NCBI GenBank assembly: GCA_001724265.1
Contig: MEDY01000233.1
Location: 54,068 to 74,067, forward strand
DNA length: 20,000 bases
Origin: Rhizaria sp. SCN 62-66
Lineage: Eukaryota
Direction: 5' to 3'
The position numbers and the translations under genes are program-made. Shown one piece after another: positions 2-16,900 of the stretch. Below the pieces are notes generated by a model. The model did not search any database, was not told where the DNA came from, and saw only the letters and a list, made by a program, of their open reading frames with translations. Positions within the stretch are counted from its first letter, which is position 1, and each line of letters opens with the position of its first letter.

Positions 2-745
2 GTCAAGGCCGAGCCACGGCTCCAATTCGACACACCCGAAGGCCTGACATGCAATTCAGATGATGAGCGTGCTGCCACCGTAGCAAAAGACACTAAAAAG
101 AGCTCTTATGAGTGCAGCATGAGCGGGAACTGCTTCAAGCTTGCACGTGATAATTCACACATGGAACTCTTACATACTGACTTGCACTTGCAACCACGCG
201 TGCATTCTCTTGTTGCGTCTACAATCACGACTCAGTTACCCAATGACTGCGCAAGACTGGCATCTTCCGGCAGCGTATTTTCTGTCACAGCATCTGGTAA
301 ATTCAATGAATCTAACTCTTTCTCCACTGGTGCTGACTTTGACTTCGCTGCGGATGTCACTGATGCGACTCTAGCAAGCACAATTGCTCTAAGTGTTACT
401 TGTGCTCCTGATCAATCTTTTGCAAACATCCCAGATGAATTGACGCTACCAGATCAAATTTCCCCGGCAAATGTTGTGATTGCTAGCGCTATGACTGCAA
501 TATCACAAGACAACGAGCAAAACGACCCCGAGTCGTGCAGTCGCCATCACATTGCATACGGCGTCGATGTGACGGCTGTGTCGCACTCCGACGACAGCGA
601 TGACGATGAAGATAACCACATGGCTGATTCTGCTGCTCAAATCCGGTACTATGACAATGACGCTTTGTGGGATGGGGACGATGACTACGGCCGGTCTTCA
701 GGGGACGAAATCTCGGTCAGCCATCTGCGCGTCCACTTTCGCTGA
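2..745 (+). CDS. 3' end of an unidentified protein (Ser/Asp-rich, probably disordered acidic C-terminus), 5'-truncated
   Basis: The frame of ORF 119-745 is open back to position 2 (VKAEPRLQFDTPEGLTCNSDDERAAT...). It ends at TGA 743-745 and is followed within about 35 nt by a shift to AT/T-rich sequence. No domain recognised. Confidence 0.6.
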   Translation, partial: VKAEPRLQFDTPEGLTCNSDDERAATVAKDTKKSSYECSMSGNCFKLARDNSHMELLHTDLHLQPRVHSLVASTITTQLPNDCARLASSGSVFSVTASGKFNESNSFSTGADFDFAADVTDATLASTIALSVTCAPDQSFANIPDELTLPDQISPANVVIASAMTAISQDNEQNDPESCSRHHIAYGVDVTAVSHSDDSDDDEDNHMADSAAQIRYYDNDALWDGDDDYGRSSGDEISVSHLRVHFR

Positions 746-1996: not shown

Positions 1997-4900
1997 TTAC
2001 TGATTCGGTTGTTCACGCCGTTGCTGCCACTCACGCTTCTGTTGCTGCTTGCGTAGTTTCTGCAGCCTAGACAAATCAGCCATTGCTAGCGGTGTCTGGC
2101 CTTCGCCACTTTGTCCGGAAGACCCTGAGCTGGTGCCCGAATGCGTAGCTGAGGGACTCGTGGGCGACAAGCTCGCAGTTGACGCGCTAACAGTCGTCGC
2201 AGATGCAGACGCAGAAGAGCTACTGGGTGACGCGCGCGACATTTGCGCGTTCACACGCACGTCGACCCCGCCCACGGTCATCACGCTAGAGCCGCGTAGT
2301 CTACCGGAAACGGGGCCTCTGACGGGTGCTGTCGTCGCAGAAGACGCGGCAGACTCAACAGACACGGCAGTGTGTTTAGATTGAGGTGATGAGACAGAGT
2401 CTGTGTCTTGCGAGACAGGTGAGGAGGAAGAAATTTTTAAGCCGATGAACGCCTGCGTGTTTGCGGACGTAGCAGGTTTAGCTGTTTCAGCCACAGCGTA
2501 AGAGCAAATACCTGAGTGAGTGGTGGCGTTCTGTAGTGCCGTCAGTGCGGTTTGAGCCTCAGCGTCAATGTGCGGCTGCGTCGCCTCAAGCTCGCGCTCA
2601 ACATCCACAATGTGCACAATGTGCTGCGAGGGAGGCTCGGCCTGGTACAGTGGAGGAAGCTGTTGTGAGATGTCGTCGGGGCTGTTGCTATCACCACCGG
2701 CAAGGTGAGAAAATCCTCTAATCACAATCGGCTAAGACTCCAACTGCGACTGCAGCTGGGAAAGTAACTTCACACGAGGAGACGGTACCATTTGCTGGTG
2801 CTGTTGCTCTGTCGCAGTCTCACCTTTAACAAGAGCATGGTCCGTTACAACGGGCTCAGTGATAGAAGCAGAACAGTGTGATTGAGGAATGACAGGAACA
2901 AACCCTAGATTCGCGTTTGACTCAGGGCCACCGCTAGAAGCAGCATTCAAATTGTTGTCGCTACCACTGAGTCCGCCTTCCTGGGCTTGCTGGCGCAGAA
3001 GCAGATCAATAAGCTGGATGCGAAGCTGCTGCTGCGGGCTCAACGTCGGCATCGGCTGCTGCTGTTGCACTCGCTGCAGTTGATAAAGCTGTTGTTGTTG
3101 TTGATGATAATACATCTGTTGTTGTTGCTGTTGTTTTTGTTGTTGTAGTTGATCTAGCTGTTGAAGGATCACCTGCTGCTGCACGAACTGTGCTGCGATG
3201 GCGTTGTATTGCGCCAGGTAATGCTGCATCTGATGGTCTGTCGGCTGACCGTTTCTCTCATCCATAAACGACGTTAGTGGTGGCGGCATTGGAAATGGCG
3301 TGCCACCGTTCATCGCTCCATCTGCAGGAGCGTCGCCGGGTCCCCACGCCTGCGCGTACGGGCCGGGGCTACTGCCGCCTGGAGCGACGCCGGAAATAGC
3401 ATGTATCACAGCATCGTTATTCGTGATATTATTGTTGCTGGGGTTCTGTTCTGCGATCGAACCAAGAGGAACGGGAGCAGCACCGCCGCCTGACTTGATG
3501 CGAGACCGGCTCCAGGACCTGGCCACACCACGACGTGCGCCAACGTTGTTTGATCCAGCGGCGCGCCCACGTGCATCAACGCCGCCGTTAACAAGCTTAT
3601 TGCTACCGGGCAGCCGGCGCGAGTCCGCGCCGGTCCCCAGCAGTGTCGCACGCAAGGCGGACGGAGACGGTGCCTCGGGGTCATCCAGCTCCAGCCCTGA
3701 AAAGGAGAGCAGTGGCAGCGGCGCAAAAGCGGGCACGGTTTGGACAACGCGCGCGGTCGTTTGTGAGAGCTTCAGTGGCGCCCAGCCCCATGAAGCCGTG
3801 TTAGGGTCAGTTGCCGTGGCCTTGGCGCTAGACAACGACGCCTTGTTCCCCGAACCTGTGCCTGCGCCTGTCGCCACGGTTGTTCCCACACCTGCGCCAG
3901 AACTGAGGCGGTCACGCGCGCAACGCGGCGCGGGAAGACGGCGGCTCGCCGCGTGGACAACCTTGGTGCAGGTGGGGTTGCCGTTCGTGTCCACAGCGCT
4001 GCGGCTCGAGCGCGAAGAGCTGCTGTCGCTGCCGCTGTGACGCGCGTTAGGATTGTCGAGCACACGGACCTTCCAAAGAACCTCCTCTGCGTTGTTGGGA
4101 CCAACGTTGCCCGTGGTCGTGACGGTGCCGCGCGTGCGGCCGCGCACACGCATCGCCCGCAGCTGCGCCAGCACGCGCTCGCGCGCAAGCAGGATCACGG
4201 CGCGGCGGCGCTCGCGCATCTCGCGGACGATCTCGCGGCGCCGGCGGCCGTGGAGCCGCATGCGGATGTGCGCAGCGCAGCCCGCAAAGACCGCGACAGT
4301 CGACAGCAGCAGTGGCGTGGCGACAAACCACTCGATCACAATGCCGATGAGTGCGCCGAGACCCCACATCCACACGCCCGAAGAGCCATCGCGCACGGAA
4401 AGGCGCACAGAGAACACAAGTGCGAGCAGGATAGCCACAACGATGACAAACGTGACAAAAGTCGTCTGCAACACCAACGTCGGCAATAGTGCCCATATAA
4501 AGCAGCTGTCGCGCTGCAGCTTCTGTGCCGAAGGTGTATCAGAGAGAGTAGTCGTAGTTTCCTCTTCTGGCGTAGGTGCCCTGGCGTTAGAAAAACCACG
4601 CTGCCTCTGCTGCGTCGCAGAGGATCCACTGCCGCCAGCGTGCTGCTGCGTGGACCGATGGGTATCACGCTGCTGGCGAGTGCGAGCACGGCAACAGAAA
4701 CGCTTATTGCCACTGCGCCGGCTGGGACGTGGTGATGCTGGGGTTGGGGTCGGAACAGCCGACGTGCTTGCGCTGCTGCTGTGCGCAAGGATCTCATTGG
4801 CGCTCGTAGAGGATACCATTGTGGCGCGGGCATCGGCAGCAAAATCATCCTCATGATCCTCCTGGCAGTCCTGAGCCGACGTTGAAGCAGAAACAGAGAA

Positions 4901-7900: not shown

Positions 7901-10900
7901 AGCACTGCTATCAAGAGGACCCTTATTATGATCTCGTGAGTTAGTGGTTGCAGAAGCTGAATGTTGCGGGCGCGGTGCGCTGGTGCGCTTGCCGACGAAG
8001 CGAGAGGAGTCGGAAGCCTGCCCCGTGTTGTTCTGAGAAACGTTGTCAAGACGCTGTCGATTCTGTTGCTGCGTATGTTGTTGTTGTTCGGCGTGTTGCA
8101 GCTGTTGCTTCATCACCATATTTTCATGCAGTGTCTGAGCAAAGATCAACTGTTGCTGTAATTGCACCTGCTGATGTTGCTGCTGCTGCTGAAATGCTTG
8201 TTGTTCTTGAGCAGCAATCATTTCAGCTTTCCGTTGACTTGGTGGCGTGGGTGTACGCGAGCCTGCGTCGCTGCAGCTTCGGCTTATTGGCCGCGAGCGC
8301 GAATGCTGGTGCTTGAACATGTTTATCGCGCTGTGAAACAAAGCGTCTGACTGGTAAGCATCTACAGGGCGCACGCGTGAGCGGCCACCTGCTGCAGCGG
8401 CACTAGAGGGAGGAAGTGCAACTGAGCCCGAAGAAGGCCTGATATTCGCCACAGGAGAGTCTGTAGCAGGAGGAACAGACGGTGGCGGCAGAGGACCGTT
8501 CGGTTTAGAGTTTGGGACATCGTCACCTAGATTAGATGCGTCAGCGCCTCCGTTATTATGACTTTTGAGTGAAGTTTGTGGCGGCGCCGAGTGTCCAGTG
8601 TTGCGCACACCAGGACTTTGAACAGGTTGCGCCATTGGCACTGCGAAGGAGTTGCTAGCGCCATGAAGTGGTGACTCTGCAGCGTCTGCCGCAGCTGCCG
8701 CCGCCCTGCTCGCGGCTGCGGCGGCCTTCTTGGCGGAGTTTTCACTCGCAGCTGCCGCGGCAGTGAGCGCAGCCGGGTCTGTCTCGAGAGCCCATGGGTG
8801 GTTCGCAAGGTGCTTTTTGTTCCACTTAAGCGCTGCAAGCAACACACTATTGCGCAGAGCAGCAGCGTCAAAATAGCTCGCCATAAACACAAGAAGCAGA
8901 CAAATTAGCACAACAGCGCCGATTACGATAATAGGTGCAAAGTTGTCCTCTATCATGCTGACTGACACACCAAACACCGTCGCAGGCCCTGCAGCAACCA
9001 CTTCAGCGACAGAGCTGATGACAGCTGCGTATAGTCCCAACCGGGTGCATGCACAGACTGTGCGCGTAGCAGACACGTGTTTCGCAACCGTACAAGAAGT
9101 CAAGTCCCAGTCTTGCGCTGCGCCAGTCTGCGCAGTCACCGCGCCAAGGAGCACATCTGTGACAGAGGCCGTCGCCACCCAATCGCTTGGACGACTCACA
9201 CACGAGACTCGCTCGTGTGATCCAACACTCCGGTGCTCGACGGTCACGTGCAACGGAGTCGACAGTAAAATCCACGAGTCTGAGTCTGGGAAAAAACTCG
9301 TCGCGTTCCGTGGTGCGATCCGAACGGCAGTATAGACAGAAGAGGTGATACTGTCGTTTTTCGAGAGAGTCGCACTGCTTAAGTCAGGATAAAGCACCGT
9401 GTCATCTGTGAAGCTCATCTCAGCAAGCATGTCTTCGGCGGATGCAATTGCAGCGACAGAACCATCATCCTGTGAGTTCACCTTGCGGTCTGCGCTACCA
9501 GAATAAACAAACGCACTCTGAAGCCCAGAACGCATCCATAGTGGCCACTGCACAGAGTCTGTAGTCTTAAACATGAGCTGTCCGAGGAGCTCGGGAGAAA
9601 GGCCCACCGCAGCAAGTTGAGCATCAGTTAATGAGTTTGATTGAGTGCTGTAGCGCACGGGTCCGATTATGTTGTCAAGAGCAAGCGGCGCTAAGGGAAG
9701 CAATAAATTAGGGAATTCTGCTGTACGAAGCGTGGCATCCGGAGCTGTCGTTAGGGTTTTACCAGCAACGCTGCTCGCCGACTTGGTTGCTGCGCTTGTT
9801 GCCCCCGTTTGTGATAATAACGCGCTGCTGGTAAAGAGTGAAAACATGCCACCAGAAAATAACCGGAATACAGCGATATCAGCGCTTTCATCGCCGTCAA
9901 GCGCAAGTGTGGACAAAAAAGACTCAGGGATGGTAAGCGAGCCTGTACTTTCTTCGTTTGCAGGTGTGTTCGTGGTAACTTCCTCATTGTTTACGATACG
10001 CACACCGCTCCAGGTTGCATATGCCTCAGTTAGAGGTCCATCGGTGTTACGCGGGGACAGGCGTGATGTGATATAAGAGGGAGCTTTCTTAACAGACTGA
10101 GTGCTGAAGATCAGGCTTGTGATGTTGTGTTGAGCACTCGTAGCAGCAACGTCGCTGTCGCGCGGTGAAAGGGTTGCATCGATCTTCATCTGAGTCGATG
10201 AACGTAAGAAAGTAAGTGTAACAGCACTATTACCCACAACAATTGGTGCCGAAGTGGTGACCTTTCCGCGCAGCACTAACGCCGTAAGTGACGGCATTAA
10301 GCTCGTAATGTGTTCAACCATCACATCTACTGTCGGACCCAGCGCCATAAAGCCAGAAAGTCGCTGCATGATGTACACACCACTCATGACCGTCGAGAGG
10401 GTTGAGTCCACCAGTACAGCCGTATGACGCGTGCCGCTCTTGGCAAGCGCCATCACGTGACGCTTTTGGTACGCTAGAGCACGCGTCCAGAGACTCCATA
10501 CAGCCGTGAACGCAGACCACGCATCATCAGACGTTGTGGCCGTGTCGGTCCTAAGAGCGAAAATTTCTGTCACGTCCAGAGTTTGCAGCAAGGACACTCC
10601 GGTGAGATTGACGGAAGAGTAATTGCCTGAAAGGACGTCTATCACGCGGAGAACCTCAGCCAACTCGGACTTGAGAACACTTGCCTGACGCACACGTGAT
10701 AAATCGCTTAAATTAGTTGTTGTTACTCCTGTCGTGTTCGTACTAGTCGTGGCGCTACTCGCAGACGAATTAGCAGTCGCAATCGCCGCAAGAGCATTAA
10801 ATTGGCTAACCGCCGAGTACATAATGCTTGAAAAGTAGTTGGCGAGCACGACACCGAGTTGAGTCCCGCTACCCGCAGTCGCAGCGGCTGTGGAGAGTGT

Positions 10901-13900
10901 TGTGCGCGTTGCGGACGATGACTTACCTGCAGGCATCGCAAGCGTCTCCATATCAAATAGCGCGCTCTGCTAACTTCCATAGTTTGCATTTGTAGATGCT
11001 CTGGACATGGTGGGCTGCTCGGGTTGCACAAATGCGTTGGATTCTGAGACTTGAGTCGTGGTGCCAGTATAGAAAGGAATCAATGACCCAATGTGCTCAA
11101 AGCTCGCAAGAAATTCATCAAGCTTGCCGTCAAGAATCTCGTATAGCAGCGTGACAGCAATCGCAAATTGAACACGAGCGCCAAGCTCGCTGGCGGAGGC
11201 TGTTAGCAACAAGAAAGACTGAATAATGTCAGGCGCGCGTTGACTTGCAACAGCAACGCGGGTCTTGGCAAGTAAGGTCTGTAGTCGTTCCTGTTTCAAC
11301 GTGCGTAATGCTGCTGCCTGCTGCTCCTCAGTGCCCGTGGAGTCTACAGTATCAGCGGATGCGGCAGGTAAAGTAAACGTGGTCCATGTGCATACTCCAG
11401 TTGCGTCAACAACTTCCACTAAAATCTGTGCCGCATTAGGATAGAAGGGGAACGAAGCTGTTGGGTCTGCATGAGTTACCTGCAGAAGCATCTTGGGCTG
11501 CCGGCTCACCGCTACTGGGTCAAGCCCAGTCGCAGACAGTACAGTGCTATCAGTCGATTGCGGCATGGACAAGTACCAACGATATTTCAAGGGCAACACG
11601 GTCTCCGCTGTCGTGAAGCCATAACAACGCACATAATATTCCGTTTGGCTCACAGGAATCGAAGAGTCGACCTGGCAGCGGCCAGATGTCGCCTTCGGCG
11701 CAGTTACGATCGTCACAATCGCAGATTCGAGCGCGCCAGGTAAGATTGCGCCCGGAATACGCTTGCTGTTTGCCGCAGTCAAAGCAGCATCAGACGGTCG
11801 TGACTGAGGGTACGCAGAGTCCGCCGCGAAAATGTGCACGCGGAAAGTGTATGTTGTGTCAGGACTTAGCGCGGTCGCGTTGATCACTAGCGTCGTCAGT
11901 GAACGTTTGCCAATAGTCACGTATGGCCACGTGAGATTGAGCTGGCCGGACTCGCACGTCCACAACACGGCGTATCTGCTGTCCTTAGCCGCAACATGCG
12001 CACTCAACTGCAAATTATCCGAAGATGAAAACACGCCTGTCGCGTACTGCGGGTGCGGCACTGCGACAGCGTTCACGTAGTATCCGTAGCCACGCTTGAA
12101 CGTCCCGCCAAGCACTGCAGTAGACACACGCGTTGAGTCAGACGAGGAGTAAGTGGAAGCAGCAAAGTAAATTGACACCCTCGCGTCAGGCTGTTGGCCA
12201 ACGCTTGAGGCACGTTCGGCCTCAGTCTCTACAAGAGTCGCCATGACTTCCGGTGGAAGAGTTAGGATAGACTGCGTAGTCTTGAGCAAATTCGCACCTA
12301 CGCTGCCAGCCGCAAAGCACGAGGCAAAAGTGTTCTGAAGCACTGTCAAGTTGGCAGTGAGTTGTAGCTGCGATAAGGAGGAGTTGGTCGCGAGATCGGT
12401 GGACGTGAGTTTCGAGCGCAAGGTCGCGTTCAAATGAACAAACGTATTGACAAAACTAGGTGAGTGATAACGGCGGAAACACGACCAGCCGTAAAGCAGC
12501 GTATTGGGATTTGTCGTCTCGAGGTCTGGATCACTTGAACCGTCAGCATAAAGAGTCAACTTCTCGTTCGGAAACTGCAAAACACCAGCGTATCCAGTAC
12601 TGTCTCGCGGACGCCCCGACTCTGCAGTCGCAATTTTTTGGTGCTGCCGTTGTCGTGAGGTTGCTGCATCAGACGCTGAGGTGACATACTGAGGAAGAAT
12701 GTTCGAGTCTAATTCGCTGCTCGGGTTCGGCTCATAGACGTAAGTGAATGAGGACTCAAACACTCGCACTGATGGTGACGAGACTGTGCTAACCGCTAAA
12801 ATAGAATTCCTCGTCGGCAAAAAACGCTGCTGCGCAAACGGGTGCAGTGAAAGGCGAACAACAAGAGGCATGCTTTTGACGGTCAGTTTAATCCGCTCGC
12901 AAACAGTCACAAACGTAGAGATCAAGTCTGGAACTCCCGCAGTAACGCAAAATCGAAACCGGTATGACGCGCCAGACGGCAACGTGAAGGGTGGGATGAC
13001 CAAAGTCGACTGGTTCAGCGTCGTGACTGTGGCCGCAAACAGAGCAGGGAGCGTCTCATTGGCGAGTGAACTCCACGAATACGAGATAAGTTGGAGACCT
13101 GACGCCACAGAGCAAGATGACAAGGTCACACGGGGCGTTACTGTAATCGCATCAGCAGCCGCAAAAGTATTGCTGCGGCCAAAGGGGAACGAGATAAGAG
13201 GGCCGTCTGTGCTAAGGCGTGTTATGTTCACAGTGGCGGTGAATTCGGAGCCTAGCCAATTGGTGGCACGGACTGAAAATGTTGCTGTCGTATCAACGTG
13301 GAAGAATGTGTCAAGCTCAGTTGCGTTGAAGCTAATTGAAAACGTGGGAGCAGGGCTTGTGAGAGCAGAAAACGGCGTATTGATGTTTGTCGGTGCCATA
13401 CGGTTAAGGACAATTTTGAACGCGCTAATAGCAGCGCTATTTGAACCATTGCTTACGAGCTCAAAAGCCATCGACGGCATCATGCCGGCATGGCCAATAA
13501 TAGAGCGCACGAGCAATGTCAATGGTGAGCAGTTACCGATTGTTGACGGCGCTGAAAGATCAACAAAGAGCTTCGGCAAAACCGCCGGTGCATGCACTGA
13601 GACTGAAACCTGGGGCATGTACAGAACGAACGCGTCGTCTATCTTGTTGTAGAATGCCGAACTTGTGGCACTCACCGCAGGCTTGATAACGCTGCCCTGC
13701 AGCGTGATCGTTGAAGCTGGCCGCAGACTAAAACCGTAGCCAAGACGAATGCGTAGAACAGACGGGGTGCGCCAGATGCAGCCAGCGGTCTCGGTGTCGC
13801 CCAACATGTCCAGCGTTGTGTTCGCGAGCAAATAGGTACATGTGCGGAACGAACCACCGGTGTCGCGCACAGAGACGCCGTCACTGCCAGTGTAAGTCGG

Positions 13901-16900
13901 CACGGGCTGCATGGTTGGATACGAGAACAAGACGTCGACAAAAGTCCCACCAGTATCAAAACGGGCGTCCGTCACGTTGCTCATTGGGATACACATGATA
14001 TCCTCAGACCAAGTGCCATCCCATGTCACGCCGTCGCCTGAGGCAGCAGAGCTTGCAAGTGCGCGCGAGCAGAGAGTGTAAGAGGTCGGATAAAAGACAA
14101 AACCGCTCTTGCAAGTGATATAAGCCTGTGTTTCAAGAGGAAGGTCGTCAGGACTTTGTGTTGTTGTCGCAGAGCCAATGGTCATTTCAGCAACATCAGA
14201 GTCATCCCAGACTTCGCCGTCATCGCTGACATAAGCAGAACTGCTTGCGGCAGCACGTTGCTGCGAGGCGGCTCTCCCATCTCGGGTTGCAGTGGGCCTT
14301 GCGGGTGCAACAAAATAGCCTAAGGGATAAAGCTCTCCCATGTTACCACCACTACCACCATCGTTCTTCGCACCACCGCTCATTGTAGCCGGGTCTACAA
14401 CAAAGATAGTACTGTTCCACGAAACTGTGTAAGTAATCGAAAGCACACCAAGACGAACACGCATGGGGAGACACACAGGCTTTGATACGCAACTTGGAAC
14501 CTGAGGAGCCCAAGACCCGTCGGCTTGGCAGTAACGGTACATGGCTTCTGCGTTATAGCTGTAGCCAGCAAACTCATAAGAAAAAGAACACCTGTACTTG
14601 ATACGTGTGCCTTCCTCAAGTGTGTGCGTGTTGTAGGATGTGAGTGTACTGGGAATCGACTGAAAGAATGGGATTGCGGGTGCACACACCCTGTTGGGGT
14701 CGGGCTCGCACACTGGCGGCTCTGGTTGCCACTTACCCTCTTCACTGCATGTGATCTTGATGTAGTAATCCTCAGAGTCCTTGATGCGATATCCAGGGTT
14801 GCACACTCGGTAACGAGACCGACCAGGAAAATAGTCAGTGGTAGAATACGAAGATTCGGCTCCGTAGTAGTCACCATCAAAGTAATCACCAAACTGCACA
14901 GACTTGTACACAGACCCGTTCTAACTATTGTACGGAGTACTGCACTCTTTGATGCATAACATCAACGCGTTAGTCGGAGACCAATACGCCATGGACGTTG
15001 TGTTAAAAGTAGAATCAAGAAGGGCTTGTGACTGTGCTGCAGACCGAGATTGAGCAGCACCTGTGCGAAGGGCTTGTTGCCGCTTCCCAGAAACTGTTTC
15101 AAGAGCAGTAGTCTCGTCATATGCACTCAAGGATTGGTAATATTGTGCATCCTTAACTGTTGCAGCAGCGGAATCGTTAAGAGTACAGACAAAGCGAGCG
15201 CGGACAGCGCTATTATCATCAATAACAAGAATGGCTGCGCGTGTGATGCGGCTATCTTCACTCTCGATAACATCAAGTGGTGAGACCAGCAATGCCTTGG
15301 CAGAGTTCATTGGACATAAAAGCGTCATATCTGTGCTTATATCATATAACACGTCTTCTGGGACAGACTTTGAATCCAGTAGTGTCCGCGGCTCAACAAA
15401 AGTGATAACATCGTTAAACTCATCGATAGTAACAGAACCCACAGTGACGACAGTGGCAAACGTCCTAAATCTGCTGCGAGTCGCAGCAACGCGCGGCACG
15501 GAAATAGAAGCACCAGACGTAGAACCACTTGCCATCATCTTCGGTAAAGACGGAGCCCAAAATGAAGCTGCGTTGAACATCTCTGTGTTCTGGTAGTGGA
15601 TATTATTCTCAATCACGCGCGCTGCAACCTCGTCAAAAGAGTCAGTTGAGGAAGAAATATCTGTTGGCTGAATGGGCACCATTGGATACGCCGGAAACGC
15701 CCCACATCCCACCTTTGTGCACTCAAGCCCAGAGCGCTGCACCCAGCCACGGGCGTACACACACTCATACTTGCCAAGAAGATCGGAAGAGCCCGGCTGT
15801 ACAGCGCCTGTTAACGAGTTCACTTTCATTTTTGGAACATAGCACTTTGTGTAGGCAAGCTTCCCTGGACTATCAGGTGACCTATTCTCGTCGTATGGAA
15901 TGCCCGTTGCAGGGTCAGGTGCATACTTCTGCCCAATAGGAGCAAGAAAAGTGTAACACACGTATGGCTGACAAGTTGCAGAGCTTGACGACCATAGCCC
16001 CGTAGATAAGCACTCCATCGTAACATCTTCGATGTACCTTAACACAAAACTGGCCGGGCATGAAAATATCACAGTCGTGCCAACAGTATAGCCAGAACCA
16101 TACGTGTCGCTGACTAGCGTCCCTCTGCGCACAGAGAAGCTTGGCAACGGAGACGTGGTTGTGCCATTGACACCCTTTAGTGGATCGGGGCACTGTACTG
16201 GAACACAGGGCGTCTCCGTCGACCAGCCGTTGGGCCCGCAGACAATGTTCTCAACCGGCACGTAGCGCGCGGAAACGCATGTCGGATAAGCTCGCACAGT
16301 CTCAAGAGTGAGCTGAGTTGCACCTGTGAGAGATGAGTAGGAGATCGATGCGACTGGGAAAACTACTGGCAGAAGACCGCAATTGTAGCGAGGCACGCAG
16401 TTGACAGAAGAAACATTCCATTGATAATCCACTAAGAGCGACGCTGCAGCATATGCGATCGAGCGCAATGCAATTGGCGCAAGAGAAAGACTTGCTGCAG
16501 AATCAAATGCGTTCGTGCTCGAGCGCTCGTCGTCCAAAGGAGTAAGATTATCGAGAGCAGCGTCCATAGAAGAATCTATACCTGTACATAAGAGCGCTGT
16601 TGTTGCTGAAGCCTTGAGCGATTGTGACGAGCACATCGGCATTGCGTACGAGTCAGGAACGCGAGAGTCCGAGTACGAAACTGAGCCGCCAGAGATATCT
16701 GAAAATATCGGACATTGCGTTGTGGGCTCGCATTGGAGCACGGCTGCGTCTTCAATTGCCTGAGCAGTCATACGCACTGATGACACGACTGAAGAAGCCG
16801 TGACAACGGGCAAAGTGGCTGAGACCGAGGCGGTGCTGGGTGCATATGGAGCCCAACCCGCAGCAGTGCAGTTCAGCGTGCCTACAGTCCCCGAAACTGG

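Follow-up and report, generated by a model that had tools for sequence, protein, structure and literature searches.

Our analysis indicates that an uncultured, single-celled flagellated rhizarian, known from a metagenome bin of bioreactor type, probably uses UAG in its nuclear code as a seldom-used sense codon for glutamate and keeps UAA and UGA as stops; from the sequence evidence, we put the probability of this reading at about 0.75. According to the proposed mechanism, a duplicate of a tRNA-Glu gene with a CUA anticodon would be charged by GluRS and would read UAG, and since the CUA anticodon is unable to pair with UAA, the latter would remain a stop. We infer that this tRNA(CUA) is probably expressed and charged with Glu, that the recognition of UAG by eRF1 may be weakened, and that decoding of UAG may be inefficient, in which case its rarity would be explained.

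The window, by which we mean the whole 20,000-nucleotide stretch of DNA that was analysed, carries a receptor reading frame that is interrupted by three TAGs and by no TAA or TGA, and that ends at a TAA (Table 1), while the two other minus frames contain 193 and 296 stops over the same stretch. The receptor is probably polycystin-1/REJ-like, since it shares with that family the order of Sushi repeats, REJ domain, GPS-like motif and hydrophobic segments, followed here by a long low-complexity tail; unlike the known receptors, this putative one gave no PLAT or channel domain in Pfam, and its GPS-like motif falls below the cut-off. With UAG read as Glu, the receptor, more than 6000 residues long, would be made in full, and TAG1 would place a Glu in the N-terminal loop of a Sushi domain. 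The genome holds five paralogues with 48-62% identity, and their comparison with the window gene covers its sequence up to the C-terminal third (the TAG3 region). Every inner stop of the fetched Sushi-receptor frames was a TAG (7/7: three in the window, one each in C367 and C112, and two in the neighbour L089), for which p is about 0.006 under random nonsense changes, and the TAG of the C367 paralogue aligns with a GAG of the window gene.

Table 1. Positions of the receptor features in the window and of the tRNA gene with a CTA anticodon elsewhere in the genome.
Feature	Position	Strand	Remarks
Receptor reading frame, 6000 codons	1997..19999	minus	5' end cut at contig end (19999); single frame; paralogues
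Sushi/CCP domain with TAG1	14708..14944	minus	Cys1 14944-14942, Cys4 14710-14708; Pfam covers 14845-14708 only
TAG1, in-frame, within Sushi domain	14921..14923	minus	paralogue codons GCA, GAC, GAG, GAC, GAC
REJ domain, best stretch	11810..12568	minus	PF02010, E 1.8e-12
TAG2	10970..10972	minus	gappy unconserved linker; same in contig of runs X2/X3
GPS-like motif	9026..9118	minus	PF01825, 17.8 bits, under 22.5 cut-off
TAG3	2732..2734	minus	low-complexity tail; CAG in strain of run X4
TAA, likely true stop of receptor frame	1997..1999	minus	T-rich non-coding sequence after TAA
tRNA, CTA anticodon	G000:C84:76008-76080	minus	folds as a normal cloverleaf; 58 bits in Rfam; followed by oligo-T

The tetranucleotide composition of the Sushi half of the window is atypical (r 0.29), as is that of the neighbour L089 (r 0.18). 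A chimeric contig was considered and not favoured because other parts of the window's contig are typical in composition (r 0.87 and 0.89).

An earlier note on this DNA had placed TAG1 inside a Sushi domain and taken it to be decoded, and on both points our data agree. The minus strand from 14944 to 14909 reads TGC AGT ACT CCG TAC AAT AGT TAG AAC GGG TCT GTG (C-S-T-P-Y-N-S-*-N-G-S-V, with the TAG at 14923-14921), and the other three Cys and the Trp lie 3' of the TAG as had been described: C2 (RVC), C3 (ITC), W and C4 (PVC) are present, and these together with the upstream Cys1 are invariant in 6/6 family members. All five paralogues carry a sense codon at the site, without an intron-sized gap in the alignment, the residues being D, D, D, E and A and the upstream Cys being kept in each, which argues that TAG1 is probably translated. 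Other details of that note did not hold. The N-G motif is not conserved, with N in 4/6 and G in only 1/6 family members; in all four where N is present, it opens a glycosylation sequon, N-x-S/T. A single Pfam Sushi (PF00084) match had been expected to span the TAG, and none did: the best covers residues 153-198 of the translation P0001 (model 15-56), where X is residue 127, so that it begins 26 residues past TAG1 at model position 15, and the loop that follows Cys1 is of unusual length. Likewise, none of the PDB Sushi alignments listed reaches X (query residue 10), the earliest beginning at residue 28. An AlphaFold model of this domain, built on an alignment of six rows, had a pLDDT under 50 for most of residues 1-57 and did not display a Cys1-Cys3 bond, a disulfide that would nevertheless be predicted from Sushi chemistry. 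The downstream reading frame, described as having no ATG, contains one 127 codons past TAG1, inside the next Sushi domain.

That a short intron removes the TAG, or that the TAG is an assembly error, is barely credible. Many apparent in-frame TAGs of the genome are indeed intron acceptors or intronic, and splicing at TAG1 was the outcome named beforehand as counting against its decoding; yet no frame-keeping GT-AG intron with a donor up to 120 nt upstream removes TAG1, and the GC-donor candidates around it would delete the invariant W and Cys residues. The base-by-base support for TAG1 comes from one assembly, whereas TAG2 and the TAG of eRF1 recur in other assemblies; a contig of run X4 also covers TAG1 (13662-16677) with 17 differences, and none lies at 14921-14923 among the differences listed. 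In the one RNA run aligned to the window, read depth at TAG1 is zero.

TAG1 had been called the strongest single piece of evidence for decoding, and it is outweighed by three others: the codons at which genes end, the tRNA(CUA), and the TAG of the eRF1 gene. In a sample of about 0.94 Mb (2.7% of the 34.9 Mb assembly), 69 gene-end calls comprised 42 TAA, 26 TGA and one TAG, and the lone TAG end proved to be an antisense shadow frame; zero real TAG in 69 calls has a p of 2e-4 if 15% were expected. Coding-like sequence continued after a coding run in 12/13 cases for TAG and in 10/78 for TAA or TGA (Fisher p 2e-8). One frame, in L135, ends TAG-TGA, and this could be a true TAG stop. After filtering, TAG made up 27 of 168,119 codons (about 0.016%), a rarity that points to inefficient decoding or to a reassignment of recent date. 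In-frame TAGs occur within the conserved coding sequence of unrelated genes (eRF1, UBE2J1, kinases and Sushi receptors), and most lie in weakly constrained genes.

Scans of gene families for TAG sites mostly found none or led to introns. There was no TAG site among the matches to ABC (0/20), WD40 (0/149), AAA (0/22) or guanylate cyclase (0/10) domains, and the dynein genes were free of TAG over more than 30,000 codons. The single DEAD candidate (1/43) was rejected as an intron acceptor, two dynein AAA_6 candidates (2/18) lay at intron borders, and the kinesin candidate (1/54) is the first codon of its match, with too little upstream DNA for a verdict. Among 142 kinase matches, 11 TAG sites were found, six exonic and five at or in introns by reading; raw counts of candidate sites were 3/148 for ankyrin and 5/32 for UCH matches. 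Unfiltered all-against-all BLAST was dominated by shadow frames.

The rarity of TAG and its concentration in weakly constrained genes speak for a standard code, in which the TAGs would be nonsense alleles or sites of gene-specific readthrough and the tRNA(CUA) a weak or dead suppressor gene. Further points in its favour are that one of the three window TAGs varies by strain, that 16/30 listed strain differences are non-synonymous, and that one TAG stands at a Trp position invariant in 5/5 paralogues, a point that also weighs against Glu. We nevertheless consider this reading very improbable, given the gene ends, the exclusive use of TAG among the inner stops of the Sushi-receptor family, and the presence of a TAG in the only eRF1 gene that was found. 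Nor does TAG1 resemble a readthrough site: RNA structure 3' of it did not rise above shuffles (z 0.02), and the base following the three receptor TAGs varies (A, C, C).

The eRF1 gene has its in-frame TAG at the position of human E107, where 117 homologues have E in 106, D in 10, V in one and Q in none; the closest eRF1 relative has V. The TAG recurs in an independently assembled contig (L191, 100% identical). A second match to PF03463 is presumably pelota, judging by its motifs. At columns that are 99-100% conserved, this eRF1 carries the changes T32S, G57S, T58K and L124M, while E55 and Y125 are retained. Human eRF1 with T32S is largely unaffected at all stops (PMC3632111), and this neutrality, together with the retention of E55 and Y125, leaves a loss of UAG recognition unexplained.

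A possible but doubtful elaboration of the glutamate code, with UAA and UGA as stops, is that it is at an early or stalled stage, in which a single tRNA-Glu(CUA) vies for UAG with an eRF1 that has kept part of its recognition of this codon; that would be why hardly any UAG occurs at gene ends or in housekeeping genes. In such a state, codon 107 of the eRF1 gene, a UAG, would act as a feedback switch, abundant eRF1 cutting its own synthesis short and scarce eRF1 admitting Glu, and the code would be a second, different UAG reassignment in Rhizaria. The feedback idea draws on just two observations, the TAG in one pre-chosen gene, for which the chance at the sampled rate is 0.067, and the absence of TAG from the dynein codons.

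The residue inserted at UAG was examined through 17 aligned sites, for which the summed column score was highest for E (9.1), followed by Q (4.2) and D (3.4), with all else negative (K -3.9, L -17.9). The TAG falls at a Glu column in two strongly conserved sites, and at an acidic one in three more. At the kinase hinge, 42 of the organism's own kinases have E in 33, D in six and Q in none, and in the nearest kinases of solved structure the residue is S or Q; at the UBE2J1 site, 116 homologues include D in 65, S in 12, H in 11 and E in 10. The deep alignments alone (seven sites) scored E 7.7, D 5.7 and Q -2.5, whereas the 10 paralogue or strain sites, which are weakly constrained, scored Q 6.7 and E 1.5, and leaving out eRF1 and the hinge site flips the total to Q 5.0 versus E 4.2. 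In resampling, an E-minus-Q sum as high as the one observed arose from true Gln residues in 0.2% of cases, and a score as low as the actual one arose from true Glu residues in only 1.8%.

What makes glutamine the main rival is the frequent exchange between CAG and those TAGs that are under weak constraint: the strain of run X4 carries CAG at TAG3, TAG replaces CAG in a degenerate ubiquitin copy, and the same exchange occurs in a kinase-SEL1 paralogue pair. On either side of the 27 filtered TAGs the sequence is also CAG-like, with poly-Q surroundings (mean Q within three residues 0.67, compared with 0.75 for CAG and 0.23 for GAG), and a flank-composition mixture test, which is a weak one, favoured Q by 0.8-2.5 log units. 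UAG would in that case mean Gln, or a mixture of Glu and Gln, through mischarging of the CUA tRNA by GlnRS or decoding by a near-cognate tRNA-Gln(CUG), and the available text of PMC9976931 describes many amber suppressors in E. coli as charged with Gln. We regard this as unlikely. Strain differences show transitions at about 3.2 times the rate of transversions per type (by arithmetic), and as CAG to TAG is a transition, a Glu code, too, would be expected to draw its TAGs from CAG where constraint is absent. In addition, Q is absent at eRF1 107, at the hinge of the own kinases and at TAG1 (0/5), and the body of the tRNA(CUA) is of the Glu and not the Gln type.

This tRNA gene was the only one found with a CTA anticodon and gave a single match in a DNA search; of two overly strict tRNA sequence patterns, one gave 0 matches and the other recovered the CTA tRNA alone, and no tRNA(UUA) was among the 34 distinct tRNAs seen (Rfam scored 63/506 candidates). 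The contig of the tRNA(CUA) gene is typical in composition (r 0.83-0.89, median 0.83). Over 73 nt, the tRNA is identical to the organism's own Glu(CTC) tRNA at 47 positions, to Glu(TTC) and Gly(CCC) at 40, to Asp(GTC) or Lys(CTT) at 39, to Gln(CTG) at 36 and to Gln(TTG) at 32, and it has the TCCCA/TGGGA acceptor in common with both Glu tRNAs, suggesting that it is of Glu descent with tRNA-Glu(CUC) as its closest relative. The Glu determinants of E. coli, as given in the available parts of PMC9976931, include U11-A24, U13-G22, A46, no base 47, U35 and A37, all of which the tRNA(CUA) carries; it lacks the further determinant C36, and the own Gln tRNAs likewise have U11-A24 and U13-G22.

That UAG encodes some other residue (Asp, Lys or pyrrolysine) is also highly improbable. 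The D scores above are in its favour, and ARAGORN labels the tRNA as Pyl owing to its anticodon; on the other hand, the tRNA is closer to Glu than to Asp or Lys, and K scores negatively. A tRNA-Pyl is not a standard cloverleaf with a D-loop GG and TTC, whereas the tRNA(CUA) is an ordinary cloverleaf in which both are present. Leucine was rejected on its column score and on the variable loop of the tRNA(CUA), which has 4 nt and no long variable arm of the Leu type.

The organism was placed in Rhizaria by a dynein tree: for dynein-10 (one gene, 39 sequences, 1383 columns), the query clade joins Bigelowiella (FastTree 0.997), sister to stramenopiles. Lists of eRF1 and UBE2J1 homologues did not fix the lineage. 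P0005 and P0246 represent a relative at 84-85% identity, and the 18S gene of the genome was retrieved as L192. A residue insertion between polyubiquitin monomers is a rhizarian trait (PMC12930898), and the ubiquitin monomers here start MSMQIF, as separate monomers with no head-to-tail junction in the assembled sequence. Scanning metagenomes yielded one near-identical contig and, among the matches listed, no relatives. Runs X5-X9 have small word shares and carry no evidence on habitat, X7 aligning over short pieces only.

UAA and UAG nearly always have the same meaning. We found no description in the literature of a code in which UAG alone means Glu, the published UAG-only changes being to Leu, Gln and Ser. 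If true, it would be one more nuclear code, and the code would have changed twice, independently, within Rhizaria. As both the cognate tRNA and the altered eRF1 are known, the mechanism could be tested in yeast or in vitro with no need for a culture. Annotated with the standard code, the genome would yield a shortened eRF1 and would have large genes, the receptor among them, broken into pieces, and a codon so rare easily escapes code screens.

As far as the available text of the sources goes, nuclear exceptions in which UAA is kept as a stop are few (PMC11687900): UAG means Gln in Iotanema spirale, Hartmannula sinica, Trochilia petrani and Protocruzia tuzeti, Leu in TARA phyllopharyngean ciliates, and Ser in Scotinosphaera. 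These codes uncouple UAG from UAA as here, although lineages and residues differ, and Iotanema eRF1 has T32G where the present eRF1 has T32S plus G57S and T58K. The closest parallel in lineage described in the available part of PMC5304391 is Rhizaria sp. exLh, also a rhizarian nucleus with UAG alone reassigned, UAA/UGA ends and a tRNA(CUA), which was predicted in exLh and whose gene was found in the present genome. In exLh, however, UAG means Leu, is far more common (384 in 71 genes) and is accompanied by eRF1 L69A, which is not among the present changes at conserved columns. In the accessible portion of PMC10553269, Oligohymenophorea sp. PL0344 reads UAG as Glu through tRNA(CUA) genes nearest to tRNA-Glu, as here, but has 10 such genes and UAA as Lys, whereas one gene was found in the present genome and UAA is its main stop. 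Blastocrithidia and peritrich ciliates likewise derive tRNA-Glu(CUA) from tRNA-Glu and avoid the reassigned codons in highly expressed genes, a likeness to the present genome; in these, by the available accounts (PMC12153298, PMC11687900), UAA and UAG both mean Glu and UAG reaches 1.4-1.7% of codons. With a codon use about 100-fold below that of Blastocrithidia, the present genome is a candidate for the intermediate stage of reassignment, which is debated between the codon capture and ambiguous intermediate models.

The minus-strand reading proposed in an earlier note was confirmed by the sequence, with the first in-frame TAG (TAG1) at 14923-14921, codon 1693 of a frame whose terminal TAA is followed 3' by T-rich sequence. 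Over 6000 codons this frame holds three TAGs, beginning at 14923, 10972 (TAG2) and 2734 (TAG3), and no TAA or TGA; the remaining two minus-strand frames hold 193 and 296 stops. By Pfam, the frame carries a REJ domain (E 1.8e-12) and Sushi repeats, together with a GPS motif scoring below threshold. The window occupies G000:C233:54068-74067. The assembly (G000 in the table) is eukaryotic, with 34.9 Mb in 714 contigs, and the four runs with most of the window sequence, one of which may be the source run, are labelled as bioreactor or wastewater metagenomes in three cases and unlabelled in the other. Non-synonymous changes make up 16 of the 30 listed strain differences in the gene. Polycystin-1/REJ-like receptors form an expanded, intron-poor family whose open frames reach 7872 codons, and a second giant Sushi/REJ-type receptor gene lies convergent with the window gene, running for at least 3332 codons upstream of the window, with two in-frame TAGs and a TGA end at 743-745.

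The earlier note had placed TAG1 inside a Sushi domain, directly before an N-G motif. A Pfam Sushi match spanning TAG1 was absent, the best stretch starting at position 15 of the model and 26 residues past TAG1, and all PDB alignments displayed for the domain likewise begin downstream of TAG1. The paralogues nevertheless place the codon within the domain: among 15 genome matches, five genes (48-62% identical) are stop-free in this region and face TAG1 with the sense codons GCA, GAC, GAG, GAC and GAC (A, D, E, D, D), while Cys1, C2, C3, W and C4 are invariant in all six sequences. The N-G motif itself is not conserved, with N in 4/6 (as N-x-S/T) and G in 1/6. No GT-AG intron that keeps the frame and removes TAG1 was found, and GC-donor candidates were rejected as they would delete invariant residues. 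RNA folding downstream of TAG1 was unexceptional (z 0.02). Because the structure model is confident only from about residue 60 onward, a Cys1-Cys3 bond is presumed. The TAG inside a Sushi domain is real and very probably decoded, and the phenomenon extends genome-wide, beyond the original claim.

Locations of the principal features (C numbers are contigs of G000, GCA_001724265.1)
Feature	Location	Strand	Basis
Window-gene frame, contig end to TAA	19999 to 1999-1997	minus	frame reading
Convergent receptor gene	window 2-745 and L089 (G000:C233:44068-54067)	plus	
Window-gene relatives, close	C8, C367, C112, C232, C2		
Window-gene relatives, distant	C80, C135, C101, C205, C463		
tRNA(CUA) gene	G000:C84:76008-76080	minus	pattern search
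Frame ending TAG-TGA	L135, ~7240	minus	
Tandem TAG TAG	L146, ~5750	minus	
ORF with degenerate ubiquitin copy	L168 (G000:C681:2600-4600)		
18S rRNA gene	L192 (G000:C706:4459-8903)		

Gene ends were called across roughly 0.94 Mb of sampled DNA where coding sequence upstream met non-coding sequence downstream without a splice donor. These calls comprised 42 TAA, 26 TGA and a single TAG, which falls antisense to a real gene. Following a coding run, coding-like sequence continued past 12 of 13 TAGs compared to 10 of 78 TAA or TGA codons (p 2e-8); excluded from these counts were 31 cases closely preceded by a donor. Among 168,119 codons with both flanks coding-like, 27 were TAG (a few may be shadow frames), 7111 GAG and 5371 CAG. 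Other apparent in-frame TAGs were mostly intron acceptors or intronic, and eight dynein heavy chains (>30,000 codons) contained no exonic TAG. All seven internal stops in Sushi-receptor frames were TAG (p about 0.006). UAG is very probably decoded as a sense codon. One coding frame ends in TAG-TGA, which could be read as Glu followed by a stop or could hold the sample's one true TAG stop; a tandem TAG TAG directly follows a poly-Gln tract in a frame that appears to be coding; and in-frame TAGs are far commoner than in other genes in a lineage-specific kinase family (L085-L087, L193-L200) with a tail labelled SEL1-like from its sequence.

Among 15 hits from a pattern search was a tRNA whose anticodon is CTA; it scores 58 bits with Rfam, precedes a T run and matches the genome only once. 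Its nearest match among the 34 distinct tRNAs obtained is Glu(CTC) (47/73 identical), with lower identity to Gln(CTG) (36) and Gln(TTG) (32), and it shares five acceptor pairs with both Glu tRNAs. It retains U11-A24, U13-G22, A46, the absence of base 47, U35 and A37, which are among the E. coli Glu determinants, but lacks C36, a further determinant there (PMC9976931). The contigs of this tRNA, eRF1 and the window all have the tetranucleotide signature of the genome as a whole.

The eRF1 gene (L031), terminated by TAA, carries an in-frame TAG at human E107, a column with E in 106, D in 10 and V in 1 of 117 homologues; this TAG is repeated exactly in an independently assembled metagenome contig (L191). 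T32S, G57S, T58K and L124M fall at columns that are 99-100% conserved (n=117). A close relative exists, 84% identical in eRF1 and 85% in dynein (metagenome proteins P0005 and P0246, which may come from separate organisms); its eRF1, the closest found, has V at 107 and, of the four changes, shares only T58K, without T32S and G57S. Thr32 touches the G of UAG, and its replacement is T32S here and T32G in Iotanema (PMC5304391); human eRF1 is largely unaffected by T32S (PMC3632111). More speculatively, the TAG in this gene could provide feedback on eRF1 (chance of such a TAG, 0.067); in plants, eRF1 is reported to autoregulate through readthrough (PMC5397192).

From the features that the sequence shows (TAG sites, conservation, gene ends, the tRNA gene and the eRF1 changes), a mechanism can be proposed in which a duplicated tRNA-Glu(CUC) mutated to CUA and would be charged by GluRS; a CUA anticodon, which decodes UAG but not UAA (PMC11687900), would then read UAG only. 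UAG would have vanished from gene ends, and its decoding may be inefficient, so that selection would hold TAG rare.

The residue was scored at 17 aligned TAG sites, excluding TAG2 (gappy column), one kinase insert, five exon-border sites, four sites in the unalignable L193 linker and non-coding frames. Summed scores were highest for Glu (E 9.1, Q 4.2, D 3.4, the rest negative). The seven deep alignments gave E 7.7, D 5.7 and Q -2.5, and the ten paralogue or strain sites Q 6.7 and E 1.5; with eRF1 and the kinase hinge removed, Q led (5.0 vs E 4.2). Resampling gave p 0.002 for true Gln residues to attain the observed E-minus-Q sum and p 0.018 for true Glu residues to drop to it, so neither a pure Glu nor a pure Gln model fits well. 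Decoding as Gln, or as a mixture, is consistent with the strain of run X4 having CAG where the window has TAG3, with TAG in place of CAG in a degenerate copy of ubiquitin, and with Q-rich TAG flanks. The ORF holding that copy continues into a tail that we take to resemble the intramolecular chaperone domain of mobile elements. Glu is indicated by the hinge column (E33/D6 of 42 own kinases, although the nearest solved kinases displayed carry S or Q), by one paralogue TAG facing GAG and by a further TAG opposite GAA in the nearest paralogue. At one site in the kinase family TAG replaces an invariant Trp, and, per type, transitions outnumber transversions about 3.2-fold, by arithmetic from the strain comparison. 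Most TAGs may thus descend from CAG or TGG through a transition and be tolerated under weak constraint, with only the synonymous GAG to TAG route surviving at constrained sites. Given this reading of the constrained sites and the Glu-type tRNA, we assign UAG to Glu with a probability of about 0.75 and regard Gln or a mixture as unlikely.

A dynein-10 tree was built from the query and 38 of 120 hits, picked by score and taxon spread (39 sequences in all). It joined the query's clade with Bigelowiella (0.997), sister to stramenopiles, suggesting from this one gene that the organism belongs to Rhizaria. Ubiquitin monomers begin MSMQIF, consistent with the rhizarian insertion, with no monomer junction seen in the sequence; ubiquitin at L166 and L170-L173 is unusually divergent, and tandem C3 copies are separate genes, one internally deleted. 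At 4.4 kb against a 1.8 kb model, the 18S rRNA gene contains approximately 2.6 kb of insertions, which are probably introns.

In the literature searched, mostly open-access main texts without supplements, neither a UAG-only Glu code nor a rhizarian with one is described, and a term search did not return UAG in the available text of two 2026 rhizarian papers (PMC12930898, PMC13746701). UAG as Glu with UAA as stop would probably be a code not previously published. With UAA as stop, UAG is reported as Leu in TARA ciliates, as Gln in Iotanema, Hartmannula, Trochilia and Protocruzia, and as Ser in Scotinosphaera (PMC11687900). The rhizarian exLh likewise keeps UAA as stop but reads UAG as Leu (PMC5304391), whereas here it is most likely Glu. 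UAG as Glu is otherwise known only where UAA is sense too: in peritrichs and Blastocrithidia, UAG is Glu together with UAA (PMC11687900, PMC12153298), and in PL0344 UAG is Glu but UAA is Lys (PMC10553269).
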